From contig NC_043010.1 of the NCBI RefSeq assembly GCF_006345805.1, positions 26,288,001 to 26,352,000 of the forward strand: DNA of 64,000 bases, read 5' to 3'. This stretch comes from Octopus sinensis (lineage: Eukaryota). The notes under the pieces were generated by a model that was not told the DNA's origin, ran no database searches, and saw only the letters and a list, made by a program, of their open reading frames with translations. Position 1 is the stretch's first letter; the number at the start of each line of letters is the position of its first letter. The position numbers were made by a program, and so were the translations under genes. Shown piece by piece: positions 6,902-61,415 of this stretch.

Positions 6902-6942
<41 letters not shown>

Positions 6943-7297
6943 ATTGGTGAATTGAAGAAATGGAGCTGAACGCAGATTGAACAGAAATCGTTTTATTTCA
7001 TTCTACACGTGTTTCGAAAGGTTGTGGTTGACGGTAACAATGGGAGTAGGGTAGAGAGCCCCAATAGCATCCCCAGCATCATTTCCCGCAATAGCAGCAC
7101 CACGGGCAGTAGCAATGACAGCACTCTGATAGATAGTGGAGAATCAGGGGTTATTCCTATAGTTAATAGTGACGTAGTGGAAAATAGAGTAGTAAGCGGC
7201 TGCAGGTCTCGGAACGAATATAGTGACAGGAACGCAGTTCTAATTTCAGAAACTAATCCTAGCAGATTAAGATTCACGTCGGCGAACTCCAAGATCA

Positions 7298-7665
7298 AAA
7301 AACGCCGTCTACCAATGCAAGGTTTACACGGACTCAGATGTCTTCACTTATGTAGGGGCATCATCCTCAAGATTGTCTTTGCGTGTCTCCAACCATTACG
7401 CAACTTTTCGGGACGTGAACAAGCGCCAGACCACGGGACTCAGTAAGCTAATATGGCGACTGAAGGATACGAACTTAAGCTATAGGCTGGAATGGTCAAT
7501 TTGTCGGTGGCCCTCCCATTTGATAGGGGCAGAAGACAGTGCAACCTTTGTGTCTCCGAACTCTTCCATATTTTGTTTGCCAGAGGCCGGATGGTAAACG
7601 GGCTCTTACAGTCGGCTTTTCGATGCCCCCATTGGCGGCGTTACACTTATCTGGCTTTTAAATAG
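7298..7665 (+). pseudogene. PLE GIY-YIG endonuclease C-terminal domain, frameshifted (Naiad-like motif pattern)
   Basis: Frame reads KNAVYQCKVYTDSDVFTYVGASSSRLSLRVSNHYATFRDVNKRQTTGLSKLIWRLKDTNLSYRLEWSI, then after shifts CNLCVSELFHI and CPHWRR. Shows AVY-YVG motif, catalytic R and CxxC..E. Confidence 0.75.
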
Positions 7666-8260
7666 CGTTTATAAATAATACCGGCACCCATAGCCCTTAG
7701 TAACAGATTCTGAAATAGCCTTTAAGATATCTACGACTAACCACTGCAAGGGGAATTACTCCTGTAAGACAAACGGGGCTTGGTTTTTTCACAGCGGGGG
7801 GTTTCCTTGACAAGGCAGGCTTAGATGAACACACACACACATAAAACATAATATATATATATATATTTTTTTTCTTTCTGCCATCCAACGGTTATCACGG
7901 CAGTAGCCACTGACAGCCGAACGATCAAACGCACACACGTACACAAAAAATGTTTTCTACCCCTACGCCAACACACACATATATAGAACAGTATACACAC
8001 ACACACGTCTCTAAGTAGATTTTTTCTCGCCCCTTATAAAACCCAATATTCCTTAAATAGTCAGAACTTTATTCTCGGTCACAAAGAACATCTATACACC
8101 CTCACCCACATGATTGACCGATGCCTGACCCGTTGAATTCTTCAGCCACCGGTTCTCAACATACACTGATAAACAGTTCGCCATGGGCTCTTAGGAGCAT
8201 AGTTCGATTTGTTTTTGCTCCGCCTCTGTTCTGTTTTTGTTTTTCCAACGGATTTCCTTT

Positions 8261-8348
8261 TTTCTTCCTGAAGAGAAAGACACAATATGGTCCCATTATT
8301 CAATCGGATTTTGGTAATTTGTGCCTTTCGAAACACGTGTAGAATGAA
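8261..8348 (+). ncRNA. Type I hammerhead ribozyme in PLE pLTR
   Basis: CTGAAGA (8268-8274), stem II GAAAGACACAA/TTGTGCCTTTC, GAAA (8330-8333), palindromic stem III ACACGTGT, GUA cleavage after 8341, stem I TTCTTC/GAATGAA (imperfect). Confidence 0.75.
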
Positions 8349-8576
8349 ATAAAACGATTTCTGTTCAATCTGCGTTCAGCTCCATTTCTTCAATTCCAAT
8401 AATGTTTTAATTTCAATTATCCGCACCAACGCACGGTTGCAACGCCAGATGGTTGTACCTCCAACCGGTGTTTACTGCTGTGATTTTTGCTACTAAGGTA
8501 TCGGTTAAACTTTTGATTAATCTACTACAAGATTATTCATCTTTCTATTTCACATTATATATATATATATATATTA

Positions 8577-8621
<45 letters not shown>

Positions 8622-8919
8622 TTTCAACAATTGAGGGTAAAATTAATTAATTAATTAATTAATTTCACCAAGTATTCAGTATGCAAAGGGACCATTTAAG
8701 GCGAATTCAAATTATTACATTATATAAAAGGGCTTAGTAAAATAAATTACTTTGCCGCATACTGAACTCGTTAGAAATAGCAGCTAAAAAAATTTTTTAT
8801 AAAACTATTTCTAACACTTAAAGAAAACCTCTCTCATATAGTGTTTGCTCAATTCAACTCAAGGAAGTATGGGGGTAGAGACATTAAAAAATCAAATGCA
8901 AAGGTTATTTGAGGTTATA

Positions 8920-8957
<38 letters not shown>

Positions 8958-8961
<4 letters not shown>

Positions 8962-9146
8962 GGAGAGAATTCACAAAAAGAAAAACAAAAGACGAAGGCA
9001 GGTGTTGTAGACAACAAACAGATGTATTAGTATAACGCTCGGGAAAGGAAAAAGTCTTTAATGTTTCGAACCTACGCTCTTCTACAGAAAGGGACACGGA
9101 AAGAAACAAGGAGAGAAAATAAAGAATGTGTAGTGGTTAGCGATAC
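8958..9146 (-). mobile_element. Solo PLE (Neptune-like) pLTR with minimal hammerhead-like motif at 9054-9092
   Basis: Minus strand CCTTT-CTGTAGA-AGAGCGTAGGTTC-GAAACATTAAAGAC. Same family at 49125-49320 and related at 13380-13572 and 56885-57082. Abuts (TA)n. Confidence 0.75.
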
Positions 9147-9619
9147 ACACATACATATAACGGGAAACACTAGTACACATACACGAGTTTGTGTGTGTGT
9201 GCGCGCGCGCGAATGTGAGTGTGTGTGTGTGCGAATGTGAGTGTGTCTGGTGTGTGTGTGCGAATGTGAGTGTGTCTGGTGTGTGTGTGAGCTGGGAAAA
9301 TACTTTTTAACCAAACTATTTTATTTTCAATTTCAATGGTATTCATACAAAACAATGAAATGTATGCAAATTTGAAAAATGAAAAAAATGAAACTATTAA
9401 TTACTTTAAATTTAAATTAAGGGAATTAAATTTCTCATTTGTATTTTTGCAATGAAAGTCATCAATAACAATAAATTCTGTTTAAGTATCAATTAATTTA
9501 CAAATGAAATGCATTGATAATTCCATATAAGGAAGCGCGACAATGTTAGCGTGACCAAGCCACTGACAATAAGACAACCAATATTTTGTGTATGTAATAT
9601 ATCATATCAAAGTATATAT

Positions 9620-9671
<52 letters not shown>

Positions 9672-9742
9672 ATATATATACACACATATATATACATGTA
9701 TGTATGTATGTATGTATGTAAGCATGCATAGTTGGGATGCAG

Positions 9743-9780
<38 letters not shown>

Positions 9781-9833
9781 TTTCTAGTTTCAGCTCAGAG
9801 CTGCGGCCATGCTGATGCACCGCCGTATATATA

Positions 9834-9871
<38 letters not shown>

Positions 9872-9873
<2 letters not shown>

Positions 9874-10151
9874 TTTTATTTGTTTCAGTCAGTTGACTGC
9901 GGCCATGCTGGAGCATCGCTTTAGCCGAACAAATCAACCCCAGGATTTATTCTTTGTAAACCTAGTACTTATTCTATCGGTTTCTTTTGCCGAACCGCTA
10001 TGTTACGGGGACGTAAACACACCAACATCGGTTGTCAAGCGGTGGTGGGAGACAAACACAGACACACAACCATATATACATATATATATATATGTACGAC
10101 GGGCTTCTTTCAGTTTCCATCTACCAAATCCACTCACAAGGTGCCACGCAG
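9872..10151 (-). mobile_element. SINE family A, 5'-truncated
   Basis: TTGTTTCAGTCAGTTGACTGCGGCCATGCTGGAGCA..GCCGAACCGCTA..ACGACGGGCTTCTTTCAGTTTCC. Confidence 0.85.
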
Positions 10152-10171
10152 TATATATATATATATATATA

Positions 10172-11152: not shown

Positions 11153-11187
<35 letters not shown>

Positions 11188-11215: not shown

Positions 11216-11841
11216 TGACACTTAAGCAAAATGCTAAGCGAGATCGAACCGGGGACCTCGTAGATTGCGATGTTAATTTCTTAAGCATTCGGCTACGTTT
11301 GTTTCCATGTATATACGTATTTATATCCAGCCAGTCAGCCAGCCAGCTAGCCATCTATACAAGCGCGCGCGCACACACACACACACATCTACGTGCTGGC
11401 ATGCATGCATCCGTCCACACATTCATCTATTCAATCATATATCAATCCAAGTACACATACATACAAACACATACATACATACACATATGCACCACAGACA
11501 AACATATATGCATACATATAACCACACACATATATATAGGTACATAATGTGATGAATAAGAGAAGCATTCTTGTAAACTATTTTCCTTCATCTCAATAAA
11601 TATGAAAACATGAAAAAGAAAATAATGAATAAAATAAATACATAATTCAAACGATAACATCATGGAATATAATAAACCAAAGTAAATGGAAACCCGTCTG
11701 TGTGTGTGTGTGCATAATAAATATACGCATCACTTTCAGTCCCTGCTTGTGTGTGTGAACATATATATATATATATATATAAAGTTAATCCAAACAAGAA
11801 AAACTAAGGACAACAACGCAAGGATGGGGAAACAAATAAAG

Positions 11842-11845
<4 letters not shown>

Positions 11846-11926
<81 letters not shown>

Positions 11927-12358: not shown

Positions 12359-13572
12359 TCCTTGTACATCGGACAAGGGACGCCGCTGGCTGACCGGTTC
12401 GCGGAAACACCTTTCGTGACATCCATTGCGAACGACACACCGGTCCACGCCATTTCCGCTCCACTGGTCACTCCTTGCAACACCTATCTGTGTTCGGTTT
12501 GTCCTTACACAGAGGCCCATCCGGATTCCCGTTTGCGCCCGTGGAACAGGAATAATCTTCTCTCTTCGCTCTTATACGCCATTTGGTCTCAACTCTCCCT
12601 CCCTCCTCATCTAACCCCCTCTCCCCCCTCCTCACCTATCCTTTCTTCCCCCGACCCCTATTTCTTCAGTCCCTCATCCTTTCACCCCTACTCCTTCCCT
12701 TCTTCCCCTCTTTCTCCCTCCCTCTTTCCCCTTCCTCTGCTCCCTCACTCCCTCTCTCCCTCTCTCTTCCCCCTCTCCCTCTTTCCTCCTTCATCCCCCT
12801 CCCTCCCCTTCCTTCTCCCCAATCCTCTCCTCTTCCCCCTTCTCCTCCCCCTCTTCTTCCCCTCCCCTTCTCTCCCCCTCTTCTCCCCCTCCCCTATTCT
12901 CCTCACTACACCACACATGACTTTACACATCACATCACATATGATGTGGCCCATAATAATACACACACCATAATACATACTAATACGTACTAATACATAC
13001 TAGTACATACTAATACTTACACCAACCCTATACATACACACGTCCAGACCCCGCATACGCCTTATACTCTCTCTCACACACACACACACACACCTATACA
13101 TACCAATACGTACTAATTACATACTAATACATCACCAACCCCATACATACGCACGTCCAGACCAATCCTATGCACTAATACTCTCTCATACACACACACA
13201 ACCCTTATTACATACTAATACATACACCAACCCTATACATACAACATCCAGACCCTCCCACGCACTTTTAGCTGGTCCCCTCAACCCGTTATCAACCCTA
13301 TTATCTCCTTATTTCGCTCTCGCGTCTCATGTTTGATCTTGACCTCTGGCCGAAATCAGATCGCCATGTGATTCGTGTAGCTACTGCACGCTTTTTTTCT
13401 CTCCTTCTTTCTGTGTTTTCTCTCTCTGTGTATCTTTCTGTTGAAGAGCGTAGGGCTCGAAACGTTAAAGACTTGTTTTATTTATATTTCCTGAGCGCCA
13501 TACTAATACAATTGTTCGTTTGTTTTCCACCTGCCTTCGTCTTTTGTTTATTTTCATTAAAGCTTCCCGTTA
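12359..13572 (+). mobile_element. 5'-truncated Neptune-like Penelope element (GIY-YIG remnant, C/T-rich 3' UTR, pLTR)
   Basis: 12359-12596 encodes, with frameshifts, LYIGQ..LADRFAE(H)..[22 protein letters not shown]. This is followed by a polypyrimidine tract and a pLTR with a minimal hammerhead-like motif at 13433-13471. Bounded by (TA)n. Confidence 0.8.
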
Positions 13573-13604: not shown

Positions 13605-13768
13605 TAGTTAATCCAAACATGAAAACACAAAGAGAAAACACAACAACGCGAGGACGTGGAACAAATATAGTATTATTGGACGGTCAGGAAAGAAGGAAAG
13701 AAGGAGGGTTTAACGTTTCGAGCGGAGCTCTTCGTCGGAAACATAGGAGAAGGAAAGATCCAGAGAAC
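13605..13768 (-). mobile_element. Solo PLE pLTR (second Neptune-like family) with minimal hammerhead at 13708-13742
   Basis: Minus strand GTTT-CCGACGA-AGAGCTCCGCTC-GAAACGTTA-AAC. Same family at 60955-61415; end fragment at 11782-11845. Confidence 0.75.
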
Positions 13769-14565
13769 ACACACACACACACCACAAGACGCACAAATAT
13801 GTATGTATGTATGTATGAATGTGTGTATGTATGTATGTATGTATGTATGTATGTATGTATGTATGTATGTGTGTGTGTATGTATGAATGTGTACACGCTT
13901 ATATATCAACACAGACTTTTGTAACACTCTATCAAGGAACTGAATCTCACATTTCCTCTTCCCCTCACACATATCCATACATATACACATTTCCAGACGT
14001 ACACGTACACACACACAAACAGTTTATTTCAAAGACACGCGCAGACAAACGTAAACATCCTCTCACATTCTTGTTTTGTATTTTTCCTTCTCATACACTT
14101 TCACCAAAAACATATATATACTCTCACATAAATGTATTTGTGTGTGTGTGTGCGTGTATGTATATATACATATATACACATACATACACACACGCACATA
14201 TTTACACTTTTCAACACATTTTCAACCGTATACTCATACATGAATCTAAACACAGACATACATTCATACACTTACATACATATAAGCATGCATACATACA
14301 GGCACCCACACATACATAGTATGCATTACATACACATACTTAACGTACTACCCATGCATACACACAAAGCTAATACAGGTAAACAAACAATACATACACA
14401 CGTACCTACACTCACGTACATACCTGTGCATGAATACATACCGTTACATACTTATATATGCACATATTCACGTACTTACCCTCATCTATATAAACACTTG
14501 CATACGTACCCTTATATACATGCACTAACGTAAATACATTCACGTATGTACCCATGCGTACATAC

Positions 14566-14616: not shown

Positions 14617-16499
14617 CGCATACACATTTTCACGTACATGCTCATTCACACACTTGCGTACGTACCATTATGTACCCACATGCACGTACATACACTAACA
14701 TGCATTCACGTACGTGTCTAAGTATGCATACGTGCACGTATGCACAAACATACACTAAAGTAAAATTCATTTACATACATACATGCACACATATTCACAT
14801 AAGAACACAAATATACACTTATGTACCCATGCATACACATAAATACGTACCCATACATACACACACTTGCATGCGTACTCCTATGTAAACACATACATAT
14901 ATACATCCATACTCACGTACGGACCCACCTATACATACATCTATCACGTACGTACACATTACCATTAACTCATACATACACACACACACACACACTCACA
15001 GCACAACATATTTACGTCTCACATACACACACACATTAAATTCTTCGAAAAAAAATTAAAAAATGGTCGTCTGCATTTTCAAAAATTTCTTTTAAAGGAA
15101 TGTGACATTGTTTTTTCTGAGTGGATACATCAGATAAAATGGAGGGAAGAGATGCTCTGTGCACCACCATCGTGTTTTGTAAATAATAGTTAGTCATATA
15201 CTAAAACGATGATCCTATGCAACCAACAGAACACATTTTTCTTTCAATTTTGTAACAGACTCTCATACATGCAACACAAACGCACACGCCACTCACACTT
15301 ACACTCCCTCTCACTCAAACACATTTACACTCAGACACTGGCTCCCTTTCATACACACGTACGCATATCCTCCCCCCTCGTATAAACACTGGCTCTCTTG
15401 CATACACATGTACACACATCCTCTTTCTCTTTCTCTTACACTCATACGCACTCACACTCAAACATTGGCTCTTTTACATACACTCATACATTTCCTCCCT
15501 CTCTCTCTCTCTCTTTCACTCTATCACTTGCACTCATAAACACTGGCGCTCTGCATACACACGTACATATGTACTCTCTTTCTCTCTCCCTCCTCTCTCA
15601 CATGCACCCACACTCATAAACACTGGCTCTTTTACACACACATGCACACATATCCTCTCTTTCTGTGATACATATACACACGCACACACATGGGCACTTT
15701 GCACACACACACACACTCTCTTTTCTTTCACACGAGCGCAGACAAACATACACACAAATATATACACACTTTGTTCGGCTTGCGTGCCTTCCTCTTCCCT
15801 TCACATTTTCACTCACACACATTCTTTACTCTCTCTCTCATACAAAGTTTCTCTCTCACATAGTTTCTTACTATCTCTCTCTCTCTCTCTCTCTTTCTCA
15901 CGTATACCCATCATTTCACTCATTCTCTCTTTTTGTCTCTCTCTCACTCACATACACACCTTTCTCAAACAATTTTCTATCTTTCACCCCCTACACTAAC
16001 TCTCTCCCTCCCCCTCTCTCTCTCTCACTCTATTATCCTTGCTACGTGAAGTTCGCTTCACCATTTTTCTAAGTGACACGCATCGACTTTTAGGTGCTCA
16101 AGATGAGATCAGATGGTGGAACCCTGTTGACATTTGGTCTGGTTGTAAACGTGTATCCATCTGTCTGTCTATCGATCTTTCAGTCTTATTGTCTTACTAT
16201 CTCCTCGTCTCTCTCTCTCTCTCATACGTACGTACGTACGTACATACACATACATACATACATACATACATACATACATACATACATACATACAAGTTTG
16301 GTGATGCAAGAAAATAGAAATCAAAACATGAGTAAATACATGTTTTTGTTTATTAATAATCGGTTCAAGTTACAGAGTGACTCAGGGCCAACGCACGAAA
16401 CTCTCGGCCCATGAGTCACTCTGTAACTTCTGCCGATTATTAATCTTTAAAAAATTACATGTACTGATATGCACACATATATAATACACACATACAAAA

Positions 16500-16998: not shown

Positions 16999-17894
16999 AA
17001 AAAAGAAACAAAAAAGAAAGAAAAAGAAGAAGAAAAAAAGGGGAAGAGGAAAAAAAAACGATCAATAGGGATCGTGTATCACAGGGTCATGATGTACGGT
17101 GTAAAAAGGGAGGCAGATAAGGTTTATCCGTGGGAAGAAAAGCCTACGAAAAAGACCACGGTAACCTCGGTCAATATTGTTATGTGTTACCACATTTGTT
17201 TGCAAGTGGGTAACCCTCTGTTTTCAATTTCTGGGTTCATAGGATTATGCCCAAGGTGGCTTCGTCATTCATCGTGCCATCTTGCTACATTCACCCATCT
17301 TTTTTTTTAAACATTCGCTAGACAAAACTTGCCTCTCTACTCTCACTTTCCTTTTCAAGTGGTACTTGAAGAAGTTGATGAGAGATTGACCAGAGAGGAA
17401 AGTGTTTGTCTCCAATCCTTTCAGACGCGTCCAACAGATACATTCTTTCGCCATAGCCACAAGGATGATTGAAAAACAGCTCTTCCTTCCCGTTTGAAGG
17501 AAGGAGGCGTGACAATATTGACGATAGACTCAGCTGATAAACCGACTCGTCCCACCGTGACAGGCATTTGTTCGACATAGCCCACAGGTTGGAAATTGTT
17601 GGACACTGCACGAGTGCGTGCAGAACGGTTTCGTCGCTCTGACCGCATCTCGGGCAGGTCGGCCGCGTGTTTCTCGAGCCGGGTCTGTAGAGCTTATCCC
17701 GAACGGGTAGCGCTTCTCGGTAGCACTGCCAGGCCAGGGATCTCTGGAAGTTGTCCATGGGCCCTGGCCCAAAAGTCGTCCCGAACAGGCGGGTCAGGTA
17801 TTCCTCGTCGACGTCCAGGTTCGCCCCGAGCTCGTCGTCGTACCTCCCCTCCACTAATCCCCTATAGAATGCTTGTAAAGTTAAGTTGCATCGA
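16837..17894 (-). mobile_element. Tx1/L1-group non-LTR retrotransposon 3' fragment (zf-RVT CCHC region plus 3' UTR)
   Basis: ORF 17318-18292(-) contains RSLAWQCYREALPVRDKL..CPRCGQSDETVLHALVQC. 3' end CAGCCCTGTGTGGCCAATGAAGAAACTTA runs into (TGTA)n. Confidence 0.85.
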
Positions 17895-17947
17895 GGTAGG
17901 TAGGTAGGTAGGTAGGTGGTAGGTAGGTAGGTAGGTAGGTAGGTAGG

Positions 17948-18010
<63 letters not shown>

Positions 18011-18048
18011 GTAGGTAAGTAGGTAGGTAGGTAGGTAGGTAGGTAGAT

Positions 18049-18593
18049 AAGTTTCTTTATTGGCCACACAGGGCTGCACACAGATGGGACGAATTACAAG
18101 GTAGAGCTTTTCTTTTTGGGAATGAAAAAAAAACAAAAAAGAGAAACAAAAAAAAAGTGGCGTAGGTTTTCGATCAAAAGGGATCGTGAAAGGGAAAAAA
18201 GAAGAAAAAAGAGAAACAAAAAGAAACAAAAGAAAAGAAAAAGGAAAACAGAAAAAAGAGGGAAAAAAGAGGAAAAAAAGAAAAACGATCAATAGGGATC
18301 GTGTATCACAGTGTCATGATGTACGGAGTAAAGGGGGGAAGCGGATGAGGTTTATCCGTGGGAAGAAAAGCCTACGAAAAAGACCATGGTAACCTCGGTC
18401 AATATTGTATATGTTCCACATTTGTTTGCAAGTGGGTAACCCTCTGTTTTCAATTTCTGGGTTATAGGACTAGCTCAAGGTGGCTCGTCATTCATACGTG
18501 CCATCCTTGCGACATTCCACCCATCTTTTTTTAAAACATTCGCTAGATAAAACTTGCCTCTCTACTCTCACTTTCCTTTTCAAGTGGTACTTG

Positions 18594-25048: not shown

Positions 25049-25244
25049 TATTATATATATATATATATGTTAAGGTATGTAGAAAAATACAACACGGACA
25101 AGAACGAAACTCATAGAAGACGATACAATAAACATGGACAGACATTCGAACCCCTCAGTCTTCAGTCAAGAACCGGCTCATCGTAGTAATTTCGGCTGAT
25201 TAATATATATATATTATATATATATAATATATATATATATATAA

Positions 25245-25466
25245 TATACAATATGTTACATTACTCGGTAGTCAAGATAAAATTCTGAGTTTCAGATGCC
25301 GAAGTGGAAATCCACAACACAATCTCTTCGGTTATCTGGCTAGATACAGATAACCGAAGAGATGGTGTTGTGGTTCCACTTCGGCATCTGAAACTCAGAG
25401 TCTTATCTTGACTACCGAGTAATGTAAATATTGTATAGATAAATTTCCTCTATCTTACCGTTTTAT

Positions 25467-25470
<4 letters not shown>
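25245..25470 (+). mobile_element. Foldback PLE-type pLTR unit in (TA)n with hammerhead at 25348-25408
   Basis: 25245-25338 is the reverse complement of 25347-25437. Right arm reads AGATAA-CCGAAGA-GATG..CATCT-GAAA-CTCAGAG-TC-TTATCT. Confidence 0.7.
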
Positions 25471-29237: not shown

Positions 29238-30860
29238 CTTCTTTACTCTTTTACTCTTTTACTTGTTTCAGCCATCCGGCTGAGGCCATGCTGGGGCCAC
29301 CGCCCTTGTTGCTACCTCTCTAAGTCCAGTTTGCCGTGGCTGGCCACTGATCTAAGAGAGAGTTTGTAGCTGCTGCCCTTAGGTTACCTTCGTACCTTGC
29401 AGTGGGTTCATCTGGGATCCCGGAAAGCAGCTTGTCTAGATGTTTTTTGAAAATGTCCACATCCGCATCATGTAGATCTCTTAGTTTTCTTGGCAGTTTG
29501 TTGAACAGCTGAGGGCCCCTGAACCCCAGGCTATTACAGTATCTGCTCCTTACCCTGGATGTGGAAGACGGGACCTTTGGCACCACACAGTGGACTGTAC
29601 GGGGATTGGAACAGCTCTCAATTCCAAAATTTGGTGCTAGTCCCTCCAGGATTTTCCATATGTATATCACTGCATATCTCTCTCGTCTTCGGTCCAAGGA
29701 GTACAAATGAGTTCCCTAGCCTCTCCCAATAGTTTTTTTCTTTCATGGTGGTGGAAATCCTCTTGGTGAAATGTCTTTGGATTTTGTCCAAGCTCTGTGG
29801 TTAGTTTGACACTATGCGGTGACCACAGTTGAGCAGCAGTAGTCTAGGCGGCTTAGGACAAAGTCCTCCATAGTGTCAACATGGTCTCGCCGTCTCTTGT
29901 CCGGAATGTCCTCAGGATCCAGCCAGTGAGTCGTCTGCACATTGTCGCCACCTTCGCGATGTGTGAAGAAAAGATTGCATCGTCACTCATGTCTATCCCC
30001 AGGTCCCGTATTGATTTCGATACTGGGATTTCGATCCCTCCTGGACCAGTATAGTTGTGTTGTAATGTATATGTGTTTACAGCTTGATATTGTAGGCTTG
30101 AATTTACCAGCATTAAATTGCATGTTGTTTTCTTCAGCCCATTTGTATATGGCATCCAGATCTTGTTGTAAAAGGTCAGCATCAGCTGGGTTTTTAATTG
30201 CCTGTGCTACCTTTGTGTCATCAGCATAGCTAGTGAGGGATGTTGTTTGTGCTACCAAGGGCATGTCAGAGAGCGCCACCAAAAACAGCAGGGTCCCAAG
30301 ACTGTGCCCTGTGGCACCCCGCTTGCTATTGGTGTCTTTCCCGAGAGGGCTCCATGGGCTGCAACCATCTGGCTTCTGTCCTTCAGGAAGTCATGTATCC
30401 ACTCACCTACTTTTCCTGTTATGCCGAGTCTGAGTAATTTGTGACATATCACTCCGTGGTCGACTTTGTCAAAGGCCTTCGCAAAGTCGAGATTACACCA
30501 ATCCACCTGTGAGCGATCCAGTAGTTGTTTCAGTACCCAGTCGTAGTGTTGTAACAGACTGCGTAAGGCAGCTTCTTCCTGGGCGAAAGCCATGCTGTGT
30601 GTCAGTGAGACGGTTAGTTTCTTCGAGGAACGTGATCAGTTTTTTTCTGATGATTCGTTCCATGACCTTACTTATGTGTGACGTCAGGGAGACTGGCCTG
30701 TAGTTTTTGGCCTCTGCTCTACTCCCTCCTTTGTGGATAGGGCATATGGTGCCTTCTTTTAGCGCCCTGGGGCAGTTTACCGTTAGCCAAGGAACCACTG
30801 AAGAGCATCTTCAGTGGTCCCGCTAGGGCATGCCGCATTTTTTAGGAGGACTGCTGGAAA
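29238..30860 (-). mobile_element. 5'-truncated CR1/L2-group LINE, reverse transcriptase pseudogene with 3' tail
   Basis: Frameshifted RT: PIHKGGSRAEAKNYRPVSLTSHISKVMER..QHGFRPGRSCL..LDFAKAFDKVDH..GVPQGTVLGP..SYADDTK..LQQDLDAIYKWAEENNMQFNAGKF..YSLDRRRERY. Tail (GTAAAAGA)n. Confidence 0.92.
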
Positions 30861-46588: not shown

Positions 46589-47355
46589 GGATCTTTTCCT
46601 TTTGAACGGCAATTTTCAACACAATTTCTAGTTAACTAAACACTTTTAAACTTCGTATACTGGTAGAATGTGCCAAAATAAAACATTTTTTTCTCTTGGC
46701 TTTCTTGAGAAAATTGTAATTTTTAAGTTTAACGTAGTTTAATTTTTCGAATTTTAACCAATCCTATGGCCTCTATTGAGCTAAAATCATTTGCTGCGTC
46801 TAAAACAGACAACCTCCTGTCAGTAACCCTAACCCTCACCCTAACCCTAACCCTAAATTTTAGCCTTTCGGTTTTTTTTTTCTTAATTATTAAATTAATT
46901 TAAGGATAACAATTAAGAAAAAAAAAACCAAAGCAATGGAAAATAATTTTAATTTAACAATTAAGAAAATAAAACGAAGGGCTAAAACGAAAACAAAAAC
47001 TCAAAGCAAAAACAGAACGAATAATTTTAGACACACGCGTAACAATTAAATTAATTTAAAAATCAAGAAAAAAAAGACGAAAGGCTAAAATTTAGGGTTA
47101 GGGTTAGAGTTAAGTTAGTGACAGGATGTTGTCTCAGTTTTAGATGCAGCAAATGATTTTAGTTCAATAGAGGCCATAGGATTGGTTAAAATTCGAAAAA
47201 TTAAACTACGTTAAACTTACAAATTTCAATTTTCTCAAGAAAGCCAAGAGAAAAAAAATGTTTTATTTTGACACATTCTACCAGTACACGAAGTTTAAAA
47301 GTGTTTAGTTAACTAGAAATTGTGTTGAAAACTGCCGTTCAAAAGGAAAAGATCC
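46589..47355. mobile_element. Foldback MITE with arms of about 290 bp, GG/CC termini, 8-bp TSD and (TAACCC)n/(TTAGGG)n in both arms; Merlin-like
   Basis: TSD AAGGTATG at 46581-46588 and 47356-47363. Termini GGATCTTTTCCTTTTGAACGGCA and TGCCGTTCAAAAGGAAAAGATCC. Confidence 0.92.
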
Positions 47356-48074: not shown

Positions 48075-48958
48075 CAAGGTGTCCTAAAAGTCCCTGATCA
48101 GTTTCAATTTTTAATAACTCTTCTTAAATTTAAAAATAAATGCATTAAAGTTTGATTCAGTATAAAGGACATAATAGAAATTAATATTCACGAGTCAAAT
48201 TTTGCAACACCGCTACATCACATATGGAAAATGACATCACTTAAATCGCAACCATTTTCGGCTTCACATGCCCATGCTCTTTCCAAAACTTGCACCATAG
48301 CACCCTCAAGAGTTTCAGACCCCACTTCTCTGATTTCTCTATTGATGTCCTCCTTTAGTTGCACCAGAGTCTCTGGTTTGTTGATGTAAACCCTCTCTTT
48401 CAGGTATCCCTACAAGAAAAATCCAAGCTAGTCAAGTTTAGGGAATGTGAAGGCCAGTTGACATTGCTGTAGCAGAAGATTATTCTCTCTCCAAAGCACT
48501 GCCATAGCAACTGCATTGTTTTTCTTGTGGTATGGGCAGTTTCCCCCTCTTGCTGGAGCCATGTGTGGGGTCTACTTTGAATGGCCTCCATGTTCCCTGT
48601 ATTAGCCCAGATTTTTTCTTGTAGGGATATCTGAAAGAGAGGGTTTACATCAACAAACCAGAGACCCTGGTGCAACTAAAGGAGGACATCAATAGAGAAA
48701 TCAGAGAAGTGGGGTCTGAAACTCTTGAGGGTATTATGGTGCAAGTTTTGGAAAGAGCAAGGGCGTGCGAAGCTGAAAATTGTTACCATTTAAGTGATGT
48801 CATTTTCCATATGTGATGTAGCGGTGTTGCAAAATTTGACTTGTGAATATTAATTTCTATTATGTCCTTTATACTGAATCAAACTTTAATGCATTTATTT
48901 TTAAATTTAAGGAAGTTATTAAAAATTGAAACCCATCAGTGACTTTTGGGACACCCTG
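48075..48958. mobile_element. Foldback Tc1/mariner derivative built from two inverted copies of a rosa (DD41D)-like transposase 3' end
   Basis: TA flanks; arms 48075-48423 and 48610-48958 are inverted. Peptides WLQQEGETAHT..WPSHSLNLTSLDF and GYLKERVYINKPETLVQLKEDI. Confidence 0.9.
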
Positions 48959-49124
48959 TATATATCATCATTGTTTTAACATCTAATTTTCCATGCTTCA
49001 TTGGGTCAGACAATTTATTGAACCATATTTTCCTTCTTTGTCTCGCTTTGTTTCTATCTATGTATGTGTGTGTTACATAAGTGCTATGTGTATGTATGTA
49101 TGTATGTATGTATTATGTATTTGC

Positions 49125-49317
49125 CATGATAGATCGCTAGCCACTACACATCCTTTATTTTTCTCTCCTTGTTTCTTTCTGTGTCCCTTTCTGTAGAAGA
49201 GCGTAGGCTCGAAACATTAAAGACTTTTTCCCTTCCCGAGCGTTATACTAATACATCTGTTTGTTGTCTACACCACCTGTCTTCGTCTTATGTTTTTCTT
49301 TTTGTGAATTCTCCCCC

Positions 49318-52157: not shown

Positions 52158-52242
52158 TGTATTTGTATGCATATAGATAGGAGGGGGTGCATGTGTGTGT
52201 ATGTGTGTGTGTGCATAGAGATAGATATATATATTTAAACAT

Positions 52243-52346
52243 TCACCTGAGGAGGTGCATTTTACATCTCAGATGTATGATAATGATTACACCACATCTC
52301 ACCAATGCACTACAGATGTAAAAATGTTCCAAAACAATCGTAGTGA
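52243..52346 (+). ncRNA. Decayed type I hammerhead with long stem II
   Basis: TCAC-CTGAGGA-GG..CATTTTACATCT../..AGATGTAAAAATG..CC-AAAA(G12A)-CAATCG-TA-GTGA. Confidence 0.6.
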
Positions 52347-54845
52347 TTTTACATAAAAAATATCATTCATTCCATTTTATGTTTGTGTGTTATGCTTTGA
52401 AGCAGTAGACTACCCAGAAATCTTCAACTTGGATCCAGCAAAAGAATACACTCCAAATCCTTGTTAGAATACTCATGCAAGCAAAGCAAAGACTGATTAA
52501 ACTGTAACAGCTTGGAGTCATAAAATGGTTGATAATAAAGTCAAACTAATTATAGATATTCTGAATGTATTTAATACATTTGTTTCAGATGATTATGCGA
52601 GAGAGAAAGAATTCGTCTTTTACATAAAACTTTCTTCAGTTAAGACATTTTTAAATATATTCCTTATAAAATAAAGATAAAAGAATGCAAATTGCTTAAA
52701 TTCACAACTTAATGGCAGTGATATGAAAAGGAAAAGGAAAAAAGAAGAAACAGGGACAAAGGAAAATATAAATCAAACCCTAAAATTTGTTTTCAATTTT
52801 TTAGGTTTCAAATTTGCCAAAAGAATCTACCTCGGTTTGTCAGATGAAAGACCATTTTTTTTATGGCAATAGTTGGCTGGTTTAACAGGATCCAGCTAAC
52901 CACAAGGCTGTGCCAAACCCCACTGTTGGCTTTGGCATGGCTTCCACAGCAAGACATCCTTCCTAATGCCAATCACCTAATAGAGTCTACTGGGTCCTAT
53001 TGTTGTTTTTTTTCTTGCCCACAGCACTAGTGAGGTGACCAAGTAATCTAGCCTCACAGAAAAGGGAAAAAGACCCCATGACTATGTGTTGATGGGAAGT
53101 ATTGCAAGGAGGAGGTGATTTTATACCAGATGCAGATGTACGACAGAGGGACAAGAATAAGTATCCTGCATTGATGCGGTTACATGGTTGCTCCCCCTTC
53201 CCCCATTAGGCTTATTTTTCTTTAGGCCAGCAGACTTGTATTAGTTGTTTTGATGTGTGTGTTCGTGCATTAATTGTATTGTGATACATGTATGGTTCCC
53301 ATACCAAAATTTTAATTAAAACAAACAAATTAACACATGACAGCTGAAGCACGGCCCTAATGGTCAAAAAGCCTTTAGTAAGAAAATTTTAATGAATTTG
53401 CTAAGAATATAAGAAATAACACAGATGCCAAATAGTTGGATAGCTGAGTTGACACCACAACCAAGCCACAGTAGTTCCACTTAATTGGTCAATTAACAAG
53501 CCAATCAGAGTCAAACCAACACATGAATCAACTTTCTAGAACTTTCTCATTTAGCCCTGTATAAAGGTGGATTTTGGTGGTAACCCCAGAATGTTGAGGC
53601 CATTTCTTAACTTCTCAAGTCTTCATTATCTCACCAGTTATTGGCAAATAGAAGACACAGATTTTGTTGTCATAAATATGGAGCAATCATTTTCCAATTG
53701 TGATAGGCCAACCTCAATTGCTATGCCTGTTAAATTGTTGTAGATCCCAACAATGTGTCTCTCCCAGTGTGTAACTGACATTGTTATTTTTTATCCCAGG
53801 ATCAACACAGAAAGCAGTGTGAGCAGTAAATAAAGAGCTGTTGTTTGCAAGTGCTGTTCATTACTCCTATGCCCAACCCTAGAAATACGTTTTCATTCAC
53901 CAGCAACAACCACAACAACAACAACAAATCCAAAACATATTCAATTCTTAAAAATAAAACCCATGAAGGTATGGACACACTGAACTTCATTGTTCAAACC
54001 AGTTGTAAAAAACTAATAAGAAAACACCAAAAATCTAAAATAAAAAAAACCCATAAACAGTTGTGTATTTAACGAAACAAATATAAAAGAAAAGCTGTTG
54101 CTTATGTGCATTTGTGTGTAACCCAACACAATGTGTTGCATGGACAGGCCATCAGCAACAAAACTGGCAACATTACCAAGCTGCCAAGAAAGCAGGGTAG
54201 GTTTTGTTGGATTCTTTGCAGATGGAAAACAAAACCTGTCAAAGGGAAGATGAACTTGGTAGAGTCAATGGCCACCCAACAAATGGGAGTCAGAGATCCG
54301 TCTGTTACCCTTTGTTTAGACATCTCTCTAAGATAAGAAAAACTCTAATGTAACATTTGTGGCTTTGTTTGCATCCAGTGATGTAGATTAATCTTTCCTC
54401 TTGAGAAAATATATATATGTTGTTTAGAGAGTGGGATTGACTCTGTGAAGGCCTTTCTGTAATTTAAAAGGAACAGGCATCAATTGATTTTTAAAATCTT
54501 TGTTATGTCTAATATATTATGGCTGGCCATAGCTTTTAAAAAGCAAAAACATACAAAGAAAAATTCCACGATGGCATGAAAGCATGAATCAGTATCGTTG
54601 GTAAGTTTGCCTAACACCTATTGCAAGAGGTGTCCATTGTTTTCACACTTGTGAGAAAGAGCGTAAGTTCCTAGCAGGACTGAAGAACTACATCCAGTAT
54701 TCCTCAAAGCAGCTTGATTTCTAGCAGCACCATCACTTGAACAATCAAATTGCAGCCATCATGTGCATGTGAGTGTGTGTGTGCATGTGTACATATATGT
54801 ATGTGTGTGTGTAAATATATATATATATATTGTGTATATGTATAT

Positions 54846-55275
54846 AAGAACACAAAAGGCGTGTAAAATTTACAGCAGCTGTTTCAGTCGAATTTTGTTG
54901 ATGTATCCATTGATCACATCATAGGACATAATGCATTATCTTCAGGTAAAATTTTAATCATGTATAAACAGGTGACAGAGTATTCTGATGATGTTTTGGA
55001 TAAGTGGTATTTTAAATAAGAACATTCAGATTTATAGAAAAATTAGAAGGCGTGGCTATAAAGAGTATGTAAGAAGCAGAGAGATCAAACGATTCTATTA
55101 CTTCAAAACATTTATCTTAATTAGTTTATAGCCAATACTGGCTTCTGAAAACATACAAGAAACCAAACATGCTGTAGCCAAGAGATGTCCTTAAGCCAGG
55201 AAGATATGTTGTCAGTTAAGTGAGATAAAAGAAAGCAAACCTCAGGGCAGCAAAAAGCCATAAATCTGTCATTAA
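54846..55275 (-). mobile_element. PLE-type repeat with decayed hammerhead (54869-54950); inverted homolog at 58999-59442
   Basis: Minus strand TTTAC-CTGAAGA-..-GAAA-CAGCTG-CT-GTAAA. Shared blocks such as GAGATAAAAGAAAGCAAA.CTCAGGGCAGCA and CATCATAGGACATAAT are found inverted at 59.0-59.4 kb. Confidence 0.6.
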
Positions 55276-55611: not shown

Positions 55612-56855
55612 TTGGGTTGTCAGGAAAGTTCATGCCGATTTATAGCAGCTTACCTTCTGACTTATTTTAGAACATGGTTGAGTCCATAAAATAGGATTTG
55701 ACTACACCTCCATTTAGAGCACAGTTTAAGCTATCTTTTCATGAAAGAAAGTTTATGTTCCTATAACTTGTGTTAATTTTGTAACCCTTTAAAATGGAAG
55801 ATAAGAAAGTTCATTTCGGCACTTGATGCTTTTCTTTTTCCGTAAAGGGAAATATGCCTCACAAGCAACCAAAGAAATATGCGCAGTTTACAGTGATATT
55901 TCTTTATCTGAAAGAACAGTACAGAAGTGGTTCGCAAGGTTCCAAGCTGGAGATTGTAGTCTTATTGATAAAGAGCGATCAGGCAGATCATCCACTACAG
56001 ATGATGATCAAATCAAGTCATTAATTGAGAATAACCCAAATTGCATGACCTGTGAATTGGTAGAAAGCCTCAACCTATCAAAATCTGTCATTCATGAGCA
56101 CCTGATAAAGCTTGGGTACACAAATTGCTACGATGTTTGGCTACCACATGAGTTCAGTGATTCACTTTATAAAATGAATGAAAACGCGCCTTTTTTAAAG
56201 TAAATTGTGACAGGTGATGAGAAATGGATTATCTACCGAAATGTTCAGAGAAAGCGATCCTGGAGTAAGCAACATGAGCCACCCTTAACCATCCCAAAAG
56301 CGGGACTTTACCCTAAAAAAGTCTTGCTTTGCGTCTGGTGGGAATGGAAAGGAATTCTGCACTATGAGCTTCTCTCAAGTAACCAGACAATTAATTACAA
56401 GAAATACTGCACACAACTGGATGAGTTAAAAGCAGCAATTCAAGAGAAACATCCAGAATTGGCCAACAGGAAGGATGTTGTTTTCCAACATGATAATGCA
56501 AGACTGCATTGGGAACCAGACAAAAATTGCTGCAGCTCGGCTGGGATATGTTACCCCACCCTTCATATTCACCAAATATTGCCCCTTCAGATTTCCACTT
56601 ATTCAGGTCTCTGCAGAATAGTCTTAATGGTAAAAATTCAATTCCTTGGATGACATAAAAAGATACCTTTTGATGAATTCTTTGCCATGAAACCACCTCA
56701 ATTCTGGGAAGAGGGTATTTTCAAGTTAAAGGAAAGATGGAGACGTATTGTGCAACAAAATGGTTCATATTTGGTTGATTAAAATTATAATGGCAAGTAT
56801 TTATTGACCTTTTTCTTTCCTTTAAAAATTGGCACAATCTTTCCGGACAACCTAA
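55612..56855 (+). mobile_element. Near-full-length mariner (DD34D), mellifera-subfamily-like, pseudogenised transposase at about 55794-56782
   Basis: TA-TTGGGTTGTCAGGAAAG ... CTTTCCGGACAACCTAA-TA. Peptides MEDKKVHF..LFFFRKGK..QKWFARF..WLPHE..VTGDEKWI..HDNAR. Confidence 0.93.
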
Positions 56856-56884
56856 TATATATGTATGTATGTATGTATGTATAT

Positions 56885-57082
56885 CCAGCCACCATGATTG
56901 ATTGCCAGCTGCAAAAGCTTTTTTTATTCTCTCTCTGTTTATTTCCTTGTGTTCCTTTCTGTTGAAGAGCGTAGGCTCAAAACATAAAAGACTTTCTCAC
57001 CTTCCTGAGTGTTAAACTAATACACCTGCTTGTTGTTTATACACCTGTCTTTGTCTTTTGTTTTTCTGTAAATTTCAACTAT
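56885..57082 (+). mobile_element. Solo PLE pLTR with decayed minimal hammerhead at 56955-56990
   Basis: CTTT-CTGTTGA-AGAGCGTAGGCTC-AAAACATA-AAAG. Confidence 0.7.
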
Positions 57083-57329
57083 ATATAAATAAATAAATAT
57101 AAATATATATATATATATATATAATATATATATATATATGTATATATATATTTGTGTTTGTGTGTGTACGACAGGCTTCTTTCAGTTTCCATCTACCAAA
57201 TCCACTCACAAGGCTTTAGTCAGCCTGAAACTAAAACAGAAGACACTTGCCCAAGGTGTCACATAGCGGGACTGAACCCAGAACCATGTGTTTGGTAAGC
57301 AATCTATTTACCACACAGCCACCACTGTG

Positions 57330-58587
57330 CAAGAAAGTTCTTGCAGAATTTTTTATTTTGGCTTTAAATGATGTATTTTTAAATTAATTTTCATTAAATT
57401 ACTTTGACTTTATATATCATTTTAAAGCCTGTATTTTGCCCTATCTAATCGTGTTACTCTTTTTCTTTTTGAATAATTAAGCCATTTTTTCTGGAACGTT
57501 GAATACAACATGGACAAAAAGCAAATTCGCACAATTTTCTTATTCCATTTCAAGCTAGGCTGAAAAGCTACTGAAACAGCTCGTGATATCAACAATGCGT
57601 TTGGCCCAAGAACCACTAATGAACGTACAGCACAAAGGTGGTTTAAGAAATTTTGTAGCTGTGACAAGAGTCTTGAAGATGAAAAGCATAGTGGTCGGCC
57701 ATCGGATGTTGATAACGATCAACTAAGAGCCTTAGTTGAAGCCAATCCATGCACAACTGTTCGAGAGCTTGCTTCTGAAGTAGACGTAACATGTATGACA
57801 ATTTCCAACCACTTGAAAGAGATTGGAAAAACAAAAATACTTGAGAAATGGGTGCCACACAAATTGAACGACAACCAATTTGAAGTGTCATTTTCCCTTC
57901 TTTTACACAACAAGAACGACCCGTTTCTCAACTGGATTGTGACTTGTGATGAAAAGTGGATTATTCATGACAACTGGTGACACTCAGCTCAGTGGTTGGA
58001 CACCGACAAAGATCCACGGCACTTCCTGAAGCCAAAGTTGCCCCAAAAGAAGGCCATGGTGACTGTTTCGTGGTCTGCGGCCAGTCTCATCCATCACAAC
58101 TTTTTGGATCCAGATGAAAACATTATGGCAGAGAAGTACTGTCAGCAAATGGATGAAATGCATAAGAAACTCTGACAACAACAGCCAACATTTGTCAATA
58201 GAAAAGGACCAATTCTTCTCCACGACAACACTCGGCCACATGTCGCACAACTGACCCTGCAGAAGTTAAACAAATTAGGCTACGAAACTCATCTGCCATA
58301 CTCACCAGACCTCTCGCCTACCGACTAACACTTTTTCAAGCATCTCGACAACTTCCTGCATGAGAAATGCTTCAAAACTGAAGACGATGCCAAACACACC
58401 TTCAATGACTTCATCGCCACCAGAAAGCAGAATTTTTATGCTACTGCATAAATAAACTTGTTTTGCGTTGGCAAAAGTGTGTTGATTCTGATGGTGTTTA
58501 TTTCGATTAATAAAGTTTTGTTTGAGCCGAGATATGTGCAACTGAATTTAAAGGTTAAAAACCGCAAGAACTTCCTTGACAACCAAA
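57330..58587 (+). mobile_element. Mariner (DD34D), cecropia-subfamily/Hsmar1-like, pseudogenised transposase at about 57510-58510; left TIR clipped
   Basis: MDKKQIRTIFLFHFKLG*KATETARDINNAFGP..SGRPSDVDNDQLRA..WVPHKL..VTCDEKWI..LLHDNTRPH..YSPDLSPTD. Right TIR AAAACCGCAAGAACTTCCTTGACAACCAAA-TA. Confidence 0.93.
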
Positions 58588-58998
58588 TACATATATACAA
58601 GAAACATATTTTCCTATTTTTAACCACTTACCTAAAAGACTTCAAATAATACTTCTTGGCTGCTCTTTATCCATACTCAGTCATTTAGTTACGTTACTCA
58701 TCTCATTTAAATATTATTCAAGTCTTTAAATAGTATGTCATTGGCCTCTTGGTTGTGCATTCTCATTTCATTTATATTCACTAAATAGTGAAATATTTCA
58801 TAATCTGTTGTATGACCTCCTAACTCTCTGTTATTTGTCCACACTTTCTTATGTATCTTTTTTTTATATTATAATATTTGATATAAGTATATAAATGTAG
58901 GCTTCTGTGTGTGCGTGCACATGTGTATGTGTGTCTGTGTCTGTATATATATATATATATGTGTGTGTCTGCCTGTGTGTATGTACATGTGTAAAAAA

Positions 58999-59442
58999 AT
59001 GAAGACAGTTTTATGACTTTCTGCTGCCCTGAGATTTGCTTTCTTTTATCTCACTTAACTGCAAGATATATCTTCTTGTCTTTAGTAACCTCAGGACATC
59101 TCTTGGCTACAGCATGTCTGTGTTTTTTGGAGTTCTTACAGCCAATATTATCTATGAACTAATTAAGATAAATGTTTTCAAATAATAGTCTCTTTGCCTC
59201 TCTCATATCCATTACTGCCACACCTTCAAATTTTTCTATAAATTCATGTTATTTTTAAATACCACCTATACAAAACTGTTGGTTGGATTCATCATCATCA
59301 AGGTATTCTCTCACCTGTATACACCTGTTTAAAATTCTACCTGAATGTGATGGATTATGTCCTATGATGTAATCTATGAATATATGAATAAGATTCTACC
59401 GAAGCAGCTGTTCTAAATTTTAAACCCCATTTGTGCTCTTCA
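58999..59442 (+). mobile_element. Second copy of the 54846-55275 repeat, opposite orientation
   Basis: TGCTGCCCTGAGATTTGCTTTCTTTTATCTCACTTAACTG..GGACATCTCTTGGCTACAGCATG..ATTATGTCCTATGATG. Confidence 0.7.
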
Positions 59443-59810
59443 ATATATACTTACACTTATATATATATACAAAGTGAGATAGGGGTTATGAGTGTAACCC
59501 ACTATGGGATATCATTTATACAATATACTGCCAGTAAAGTACCCAGAAAGGCTAATACATAAATGCTAACAATTGCAATGCAATTAATTAATTTATTGTA
59601 TTATATGGGCGAAGGTAAAATGTTTTACCTCAAATTCATAATACAAAATAAGAAAATGGAGGAATAGATTTCTTCCAATCATCAACTACTAGATAATACC
59701 AATTCATATAATTTATTAACTAATTATTTAGGAACATCCAGATCAAACAGAATAAAACAGTACACATCAATAAGTAAAATAATACCATAAGAACAATACA
59801 TATAAAATGG

Positions 59811-59936
59811 ATCTTACAGCTGTTTCAGCCTGTAGATAAGAGTATCTCATTATGCTCATATTAGTCAGATGTATTGAGGTAATATGCAGTTAAAAATGAG
59901 TTACTTATAAATATATCTCAAGGCCTCGTCAGAGAT
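59811..59936 (-). ncRNA. Type I hammerhead ribozyme with intact core and 99-nt stem II, in a PLE-type repeat (about 59470-60020)
   Basis: Minus strand ATCT-CTGACGA-GGCCT..(long hairpin)..AGGCT-GAAA-CAGCTG-TA-AGAT. Confidence 0.75.
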
Positions 59937-60126
59937 TATAAAGTACAATTATAAAGGTATAAAATGAAGATATAAAGTGCAAATATGAATATTAAAGAAA
60001 GTACACATATACAAGAATAAGCATATATACATATATACATATACATATAAGTGTATATGCACCTACATATACATATATACAAGTATATACATAATAATAT
60101 ACATACACATACACATATATATATAT

Positions 60127-60160
<34 letters not shown>

Positions 60161-60311
60161 GGAAAAAAATCTATATACCATATAGATTTCTGGTGCATCC
60201 AAGTTAAGTACCATATTCATGTGAATTCAACACTTGAATCTTAATTGCTTGTACCTTATATATATATATATATATATATACATACATATATATACATTAC
60301 ATATATATATA

Positions 60312-60906
60312 TATATATTTAGTGAGGGAAGAAATGGAGCTGAACGAAGATTTTACAAAATTCCTTTTTATTATTTTCTACATATGTTTCAAAGGCTGCA
60401 AAGTCCCTAATTCGGATTGAATAAGGAGACCATTTTGCAGCTTTCTCTTCAGGAAAAACCAGGAACTTAAATCTCCAACAAAATGCGCAGCAAGCTTTTC
60501 GACAAACGCTCTCTAGAAGCCCATGGTATGAATGGTGCCATTCATACCATGGGCTCCTAGAGAGCGTTTGTCAAAAAGCTTGCTGCGCATTTTGTTGGAG
60601 ATTTAAGTTCCTGGTTTTTCCTGAAGAGAAAGCTGCAAAATGGTCTCCTTATTCAATCCGAATTAGGGACTTTGCAGCCTTTGAAACATATGTAGAAAAT
60701 AATAAAAAGGAATTTTGTAAAATCTTCGTTCAGCTCCATTTCTTCCCTCACTAAATATATAAAACTTCAAATTTCCGCACTAAGGCACGGTTTTGAGAGC
60801 CCATGGTCGTAACCTCAACCGTGATTTTTCTGTTGGGATTTTTGCTACCCAGGTATCGGTTATAATTTGAATAATCCGTAACAAGATAATTCATTTATCC
60901 ATTTCA

Positions 60907-60910
<4 letters not shown>
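60312..60910 (+). mobile_element. Non-coding PLE foldback: 450-bp near-perfect palindrome (60312-60761) plus 3' tail, in (TA)n, with a hammerhead on each strand
   Basis: Arms meet at GAATGG-TG-CCATTC (centre 60536/60537). Hammerheads at 60616-60699(+) and 60374-60457(-). Homologous to 8180-8555. Confidence 0.88.
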
Positions 60911-60954
<44 letters not shown>

Positions 60955-60959
<5 letters not shown>

Positions 60960-61415
60960 AACCAAACATGAAAACACAAAGAGAAAACACAACACAAGGA
61001 CGTGGAACAAGTACAGTATTATTGGACGCTCAGGAAAGAAGGAAAGGAGGGTTTAACGTTTTGAGCGGAGCTCTTCATCAGAAACATAGGAAAAGGAAAG
61101 ATCTAAAGAAGGGAAGACGGAGGAAAAAAAATCGCCAACGGTACACATGCGGTCACATTTTGAATGCAAATTTTTTTCTAAAAAATCGCAGTGGCGCATG
61201 AGAGGCGTGAAGCAGAGTCCCCTACTGAGGAGAGAGCGCTCGGCAGCGGAAAGGGGGTGGGTGGGGTGTATAGTGACAACAGTGCGAGGGAACAAGGCGG
61301 TGGGATGGGTGGGATTAGGAAGAGGGCGTGCAGAGGTGTGGGGAGGAGGGTTGGAATTGTTGGGTGAGGTTGGGTAGGGGTGGGAATGTCAGGGTGGGGT
61401 GTGTGGGTCTGCAGA
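60955..61415 (-). mobile_element. PLE 3' end/pLTR (family of 13605-13768) with minimal hammerhead at 61051-61085
   Basis: Minus strand GTTT-CTGATGA-AGAGCTCCGCTC-AAAACGTTA-AAC, with C-rich UTR upstream and TA flanks. Confidence 0.8.

Follow-up and report, generated by a model that had tools for sequence, protein, structure and literature searches.

Hammerhead-bearing foldbacks in TA repeats of Octopus sinensis as probable insertion products of Penelope-like elements

Penelope-like elements (PLEs) of the Hydra clade, including Hydra-1_Obim from octopus, were described by Craig et al. in 2021, and that paper already reports inverted copies, tails and TA targeting (PMC8557442). The minimal hammerheads of PLEs, their dependence on dimers and a core with U3-A8 are covered by Cervera and de la Pena (2014), together with opposite-strand motif pairs 100–700 bp apart and many single motifs that stem from truncated PLEs (PMC4209133). 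Here we examine a 64,000-nucleotide stretch of the 2.72-Gb Octopus sinensis genome (assembly GCF_006345805.1, contig NC_043010.1, positions 26,288,001 to 26,352,000, forward strand), hereafter the window, in which hammerhead ribozyme motifs and palindromic foldback units lie among TA repeats. Judged from sequence, the motifs are the ends, or pseudo-long terminal repeats (pLTRs), of ordinary, mostly truncated PLEs inserted in TA repeats, and the palindromes were probably made once, at insertion, when two cDNAs from two fixed RNA sites were joined head to head. Each of these parts has been published before, from the hammerheads, inverted pLTRs and tails of PLEs to their TA targeting and the occurrence of Hydra elements in an octopus. 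New from the copies studied here is a rule that can be counted in four families: each start site supplies one arm.

A lizard Poseidon element, PAc, was studied in vitro by Frangieh et al. (2024) and uses two internal start sites for its reverse transcriptase (RT) that bound the tail; AT-rich DNA is cut and extended on both strands, the protein is a predicted dimer, and hammerhead cleavage is dispensable (PMC11167929). The octopus units resemble PAc in having two end sites that bound a tail and an AT-rich target, with tails of 60–175 nt versus 30–40 nt in PAc; the PAc main text neither ties the two sites to inverted arms nor gives a one-of-each rule (PMC11167929). Non-LTR retrozymes, as defined in bioRxiv 10.64898/2026.07.22.740005, are tandem arrays in which two or more hammerhead units follow one another. 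They share with the window units the absence of coding sequence, a type I hammerhead and an origin in PLE pLTRs, whereas the window units are single or head to head.

The connection to PLEs comes from copies elsewhere in the genome. A genome search with the GIY-YIG fragment at 7271–7594, in which the best 150 of 12,511 candidates were scored, led to six fetched copies with open frames of 598–923 aa; the A1 hammerhead lies downstream in five of them and a related end in the sixth. Frames of 720–923 aa upstream of the A1 hammerhead encode RT, with GIY-YIG at the C terminus. PLE hallmarks observed among the copies include 5' truncation, partial tandems (L078, with a 3.64-kb unit), an inverted 5' copy (L073) and an optional tail. 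Copies of family C extend upstream into frames 32–49% identical to the A protein, and family D adjoins, in L327, a frame 45–50% identical to A in the RT, and one open reading frame (ORF) carrying RT and GIY-YIG stands upstream of the hammerhead pLTR in families A, C, D and B2. The family A protein went unrecognised by Pfam, and a protein search returned 264 relatives at 30–45% identity. A preliminary description of the window, made from its letters alone, had linked the hammerheads to PLE pLTRs, a link supported by window ends that continue into RT/GIY-YIG frames in other copies.

The Hydra assignment is based on motifs and on comparison by eye with a published supplement alignment. DKT is present in A and D, with RWK in D and RWL in A, and the endonucleases of A, C and D have no CCHH and carry CxxC and CxH around a conserved E and N. 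RT followed by a C-terminal GIY-YIG, DKT, CxxC..E..N..CxH and a (TA)n target, the insertion preference seen here as well, are common to Hydra-clade PLEs (PMC8557442), and family C (L085, L099) is also like that clade in its CxCX5C linker. Compared by eye, the octopus elements belong to a different family from Hydra-1_Obim. Family A is unlike the clade in its long Ser/Asn-rich linker with a single Cys, its 3.6-kb unit and its lack of CxCX5C, and is therefore termed Hydra-like. The long Ser/Asn-rich linker between RT and endonuclease is found in A (L074:2088–4727, minus strand) and D (L327:3800–4430) and resembles Asn-rich inserts reported in rotifer PLEs.

In most of eight fetched regions (L319, L320, L322, L323), family B2 adjoins an RT that has the DKG motif together with a CX4CxxC linker and GIY-YIG; Pfam matches of the protein to RVT_1 and GIY-YIG lay below cut-off. 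By its motifs B2 is a Neptune-type PLE, in a sense that leaves Neptune and Nematis unsplit; DKG, CX4CxxC, GIY-YIG, the minimal motif, one base between 9 and 10.1 and the CG palindrome are all shared with the Neptune-type PLEs of PMC4209133. At the DNA level B1 and B3 are related to B2. At L319:6754–7596, three B2 pLTRs stand in a row behind a near-full Neptune-type element, with TA runs between them and a period of 280 nt; this is the nearest thing to a retrozyme array that we saw. Chimeras of a variable-end N-terminal ORF fragment and a fixed-start B2 pLTR occur at L295, L297, L298, L304, L308, L315 and L316 and in the window at 60956–61415, and were probably produced when the template was switched at the 5' end of the RNA. 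Family B1 (e.g. 49120–49316) forms a unit of about 197 nt with fixed ends and 2553 first-look candidates, which could be a SINE-like passenger or a run-off cDNA.

Type I hammerheads had been listed at 13 sites, and hammerhead-like sequence is present at all of them. With a type I descriptor (core CUGANGA / GAAA / NUH, 4-bp stem II base, stem III and 3-bp stem I), the exact core was found at four of the 13 (8268+, 59932−, 60452−, 60621+), compared with none in 12/12 local shuffles and none in the reversed window. Allowing one core change gave eight sites versus 0–2 in 12 shuffles, the changed ones being 13438+ (A6U), 13738− (U4C), 25354+ (U4C) and 61081− (G12A); the five other motifs on the list (9054, 49187, 52243, 54869 and 56955) are decayed, with at least two defects each. 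Among the 150 of 237 Rfam rows listed there was no hammerhead family, just microRNA matches driven by microsatellites, in which the window is rich (130 rows from Tandem Repeats Finder). Of 17 unit ends, 13 are no more than 10 nt away from a (TA)4+ run, compared with 3.6% of random positions, in agreement with the reported TA borders; one family D end was placed 27 nt off in this count and adjoins TA too.

The 13 sites comprise six DNA families (A, B, C, D, F and G), with A at 8.3 and 60.5 kb and B at 9.1, 13.4, 13.7, 49.2, 57.0 and 61.1 kb. The statement that at least five families are unrelated thus holds for their DNA, although A, C and D encode related proteins. A seventh family, E, is the 16.3-kb palindrome, whose window copy lacks the hammerhead 5' half; among its relatives, 14 of 25 loci could be parsed, with a UUGAUAA (U3-A8) core, a 4-bp stem II and a GUC site. 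PLE hammerheads reportedly cleave as dimers, a result attributed to Lunse et al. in a citing review. In 5/5 cases folded, stem III was predicted to form no hairpin alone and to self-dimerise at −3.5 to −13.1 kcal/mol, consistent with the earlier view that it is too short for a monomer.

Core words were counted in parsed copies, the unparsed ones being truncated or outside the pattern. CUGAAGA was present in 10/12 for A2 and the core was intact in 20/20 for D; U4C characterised 28/28 copies of C and A6U 27/28 copies of B1. Published Hydra hammerheads (PMC8557442) share the palindromic stem III and often the additional pyrimidine before GAAA; the motifs listed there differ in having stem II regions of about 10–25 nt, versus 55–97 nt in A, D and F, and in not showing the U4C of family C. 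The A6U of B1 likewise sets it apart from the Neptune-type minimal hammerheads of PMC4209133. U4C and A6C are reported as weak yet natural hammerhead variants (PMC3088659), and A6U across B1 may indicate a dead ribozyme. Hammerheads with a long stem, or with a core variant (U4C or A6U) fixed throughout a family, offer a ready test of whether an active ribozyme is required by PLEs.

Turning to the arms of the foldbacks, copies of each Hydra-type family end at one of two fixed places, a tail end and an inner site 60–175 nt upstream, both of which adjoin TA. Family A1 copies picked by their ORF end at the tail in 5/12 and at the inner site in 7/12 cases. When two-armed units were picked by the tail, the outer ends of the two arms were of different kinds in 23/23 for A2 and in 18/19 for A1 (18 inner, 1 tail; P 5e-4; L235, L239 and very short arms excluded). 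Pairs not picked by the tail had one end of each kind in 18/19 cases (P about 4e-5 at 0.5), this sample consisting of ten C pairs and one same-kind neighbour, six D pairs and two A1 pairs, with edge-cut arms and L201 excluded. The tail may sit on either arm and is on the inverted one at L073, L068, L087, L093, L101, L203, L204, L206 and L207. The rule was not found in the literature searched, which lay outside subscription papers and bioRxiv supplements. It bears on a step named as open by Craig et al. (PMC8557442) and is directly testable in the 2024 in vitro system.

Outer ends are fixed and inner junctions vary. When the 588-nt A2 foldback was used as the query and the best 40 of 3232 candidates were scored, its layout was found at no fewer than 20 distinct loci, with centres varying by a few bases. 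This suggested a shared inversion point, which was dropped when a query with the A2 tail only exposed the selection, since a foldback query selects for its own layout. Among the best 30 loci of 1832 candidates for the tail-only query, window copy included, an inverted arm was present in 23, and its outer end fell at −145 to −147 in all 23, whereas inner and sense 5' ends were spread from −137 to −1221 relative to the tail end. Twelve of the 23 junctions overlap by 1–5 nt, two are blunt and nine contain filler. Three of the 29 other loci are near-symmetric like the window copy, and in 4/23 (L036, L038, L048, L059) there is hardly any sequence, or none, that both arms have in common. Non-self ends of A2 fall within −364..−372 in 8/51 cases (from 5/29 loci, hence not independent), and seven lie beyond. 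Other copies of B1 reach more than 17 nt beyond the query start in 3/29 cases, and B2 pLTRs have a single start place, at an initiator-like word; the A2, B1 and B2 edges are likely RNA 5' ends. At 20 distinct foldback loci (duplicates, L013 and L017 excluded), the left arm matched its own right arm better than any other arm in 15, equally well in three and less well in two, with a mean identity to other loci of 0.90–0.94. These mirrored private changes suggest that both start sites are used on the same RNA.

We propose that an element protein would cut both strands of the TA target, that a cDNA would be primed at each of the two start sites, the pair using opposite strands and probably one and the same RNA, and that both would stop early and then be joined, leaving a variable inner junction. 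The tail continues into the ORF start in L073 and L078, so start sites lie near the mRNA 5' end too, where priming would give short run-off cDNAs and hence coding-free units. With priming at such sites both cDNAs would run off, yielding a near-perfect coding-free foldback, and stalls at hammerhead stems would give shorter forms. By analogy, the pattern fits the lizard PLE sites in vitro, one each on opposite strands. A more specific model, fixed-site twin priming, has an asymmetric protein dimer use the tail and inner site of a single RNA on opposite strands, with hammerhead stems and the RNA 5' end setting the cDNA stops, and we lean slightly towards it. If this model is true, one rule would account for the inverted pLTR, for the tail on one side only and for foldbacks without coding sequence, and perfect hairpin loci that act as sources of double-stranded RNA (dsRNA) would be expected in their thousands. 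In LINE-1 twin priming, both ends of the target break prime cDNA and the two cDNAs are joined in inverted orientation. The process is named in bioRxiv 10.1101/2024.12.14.628481. Unlike in LINE-1, the second start here is a fixed site near the first, so that the arms duplicate each other.

Hammerheads would be passengers in such an insertion. Hammerhead cleavage as the cause of cDNA ends was rejected for most ends, those near the site running at least 3 nt past it; the end of L250 is compatible with cleavage. In predicted folds of the 60.3- and 25.2-kb transcripts each of the seven core bases has a pairing probability of 1.0, and the family C core is mostly paired even without the arm. With the core fully paired, dsRNA is expected from a foldback transcript and not an active ribozyme; intact hammerheads would cleave only as dimers, and not within a foldback transcript. 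The idea that these units seed the genome with dsRNA and self-cleaving RNA is thus plausible in its first half and, by these predictions, unlikely in its second as regards foldbacks. Four contig sets that we guess to be RNA include the A1 end and are uninformative on strand, start, end and level.

Several points weigh against our account. Two pairs have ends of the same kind (L262, tail/tail; the L083 neighbour, inner/inner), gene conversion could also produce the identity of arms, and the in vitro support is from Poseidon and not Hydra. The ORF link covers A, C, D and B2, and no parent ORF for family F was present within 1.5 kb of 20 copies. The samples are the 30–40 top-ranking matches among at most 3232 candidates, the ranking being by similarity to the window copy, and are therefore biased by subfamily. 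Finally, one A1 junction is common to eight loci and gives a 168-nt unit. This unit, the 588-nt layout at its 20 or more loci, the start of 26/29 other B1 copies either just inside the query start or no more than 17 nt upstream of it, as in a fixed-size unit, and the known non-autonomous Chlamys PLEs (PMC8557442) would all suit mini-units that are non-autonomous elements, transcribed and copied whole by the PLE protein. We nevertheless regard that explanation as improbable. The 588-nt matches were chosen by the foldback query; centres vary even inside one subfamily, and a given type of centre turns up in more than one subfamily. The 168-nt junction shows 6 nt of microhomology where hammerhead stem II has its base, ragged left ends and three tail backgrounds, each seen also in copies without it, and at five further loci this left end is fused to different partners (in a search that favoured such ends); recurrence is the simpler reading. 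No clade-inherited shared junction was found in the examined copies, and the window holds no tandem array of two or more consecutive hammerhead units. The palindromes noted at 16.3, 25.2 and 60.3 kb do exist and lack an ORF, with only a hammerhead 3' half in the first and one whole motif in the second. Of the two origins offered for them, a retrozyme-like non-autonomous class is contradicted by the lack of tandem arrays, by junctions that differ between loci and by ends that run into RT/GIY-YIG frames, and recurring products of target-primed insertion agree with variable junctions between fixed outer ends. A unique inversion point at every locus had been set against a shared one; junctions proved to be clustered, neither unique nor shared, with one recurring at eight loci on three subfamily backgrounds. 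The palindromes, then, are likely to be recurring insertion products, and a retrozyme class that propagates is improbable.

An inverted arm could also be created if one cDNA, or an antisense template, primed itself (snap-back), the tail then arising when an endonuclease resolves the intermediate. Such schemes have been proposed for rotifer PLEs (PMC3846280 and PMC8557442), the mirroring of locus-private changes would follow from them, and the symmetric centres of L001, L002 and L006 could be hairpin loops. Most junctions, however, lie off centre, to either side and by as much as 900 nt, the four arm pairs with little or no common sequence are impossible by self-copying, and nine loci carry the tail on the inverted arm, which together leave this route quite improbable. 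Long-read data can yield perfect palindromes, and a real mariner-derived inverted repeat lies at 48.1–48.9 kb, so sequencing or assembly artefacts and TA-targeting DNA transposons (miniature inverted-repeat transposable elements) were weighed as well. The units are asymmetric, with a one-sided tail, have different TA arrays on their flanks and lead on into RT frames, and contigs from two further public runs (X2, X12) also contain A1 ends joined head to head; this explanation is largely refuted and only barely credible.

Table 1. Hammerhead-bearing units and related PLE fragments, in window coordinates.
Feature	Position	Strand	Remarks
Family A1 inverted arm	6935..7021	-	Outer end is the inner start site; hammerhead 3' half only
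5'-truncated Hydra-like PLE, A1	7021..8555	+	96–98% identity to copies with 720–923 aa open frames (tblastn); Ser/Asn-rich linker, frameshifted GIY-YIG (to about 7662), 3' untranslated region, hammerhead, inner site about 8407, tail to 8555
Type I hammerhead, A1	8261..8347	+	Intact CUGAAGA core, 55-nt stem II region, stem III ACACGUGU, GUA site
Solo pLTR, family B1	8962..9144	-	Decayed minimal hammerhead: CUGUAGA, stem III broken
Family B3 3' end	13331..13570	+	Minimal hammerhead, A6U at 13438
Solo pLTR, Neptune-type family B2	13605..13770	-	Minimal hammerhead, U4C at 13738
Old foldback, family E	16296..16460	+	Left inverted arm carries tail; arms about 16352–16389 and 16406–16444
Foldback, Hydra-clade family C	25249..25469	+	Hammerhead 25348–25409: CCGAAGA, additional U before GAAA, ACUC-A-GAGU
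Solo pLTR, family B1	49120..49316	+	Decayed minimal hammerhead
Family F fragment	52235..52400	+	Long-stem hammerhead with G12A
Family G fragment	54831..55000	-	Hammerhead, cleavage triplet altered
Solo pLTR, family B1	56885..57079	+	Decayed minimal hammerhead
Second family G copy, more decayed	59293..59449	+	79%; absent from the preliminary description
Hydra-like family D 3' end and tail	59470..60022	-	Intact hammerhead 59932–59811, 97-nt stem II region, ACAGCUGU
Family A2 foldback	60319..60906	+	Inverted arm 60319–60535, sense arm 60538–60761, tail 60762–60906; hammerheads 60452−, 60621+
Family B2 pLTR behind N-terminal ORF fragment	60956..61415	-	pLTR 60956–61185, G12A hammerhead; same Neptune-type element

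Beside the units of Table 1, a short unit between TA arrays at 25069–25202 (minus strand), with CUGAAGA at 25165, is possibly a further decayed pLTR, and a B2 3' fragment without hammerhead lies between TA arrays at 11783–11847 (minus strand). The inverted repeat at 48123–48911 has 299-nt arms (96%), each with the C-terminal part of a transposase that is mariner-like by its motif, and no hammerhead; as a DNA-transposon foldback derived from mariner, it was set aside from the hammerhead foldbacks. An inverted pair with 135-nt arms (93%), 324 nt apart, is located at 46675–47268. The window further contains two mariner transposases (55805–56653 and 57564–57980), remnants of a non-LTR element (zf-RVT) at 17318–18313 and, at 29320–30810, an RT-bearing element that long TA arrays split. 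Short interstitial TTAGGG-type repeats are found at 4737–4814 and 46824–46856.

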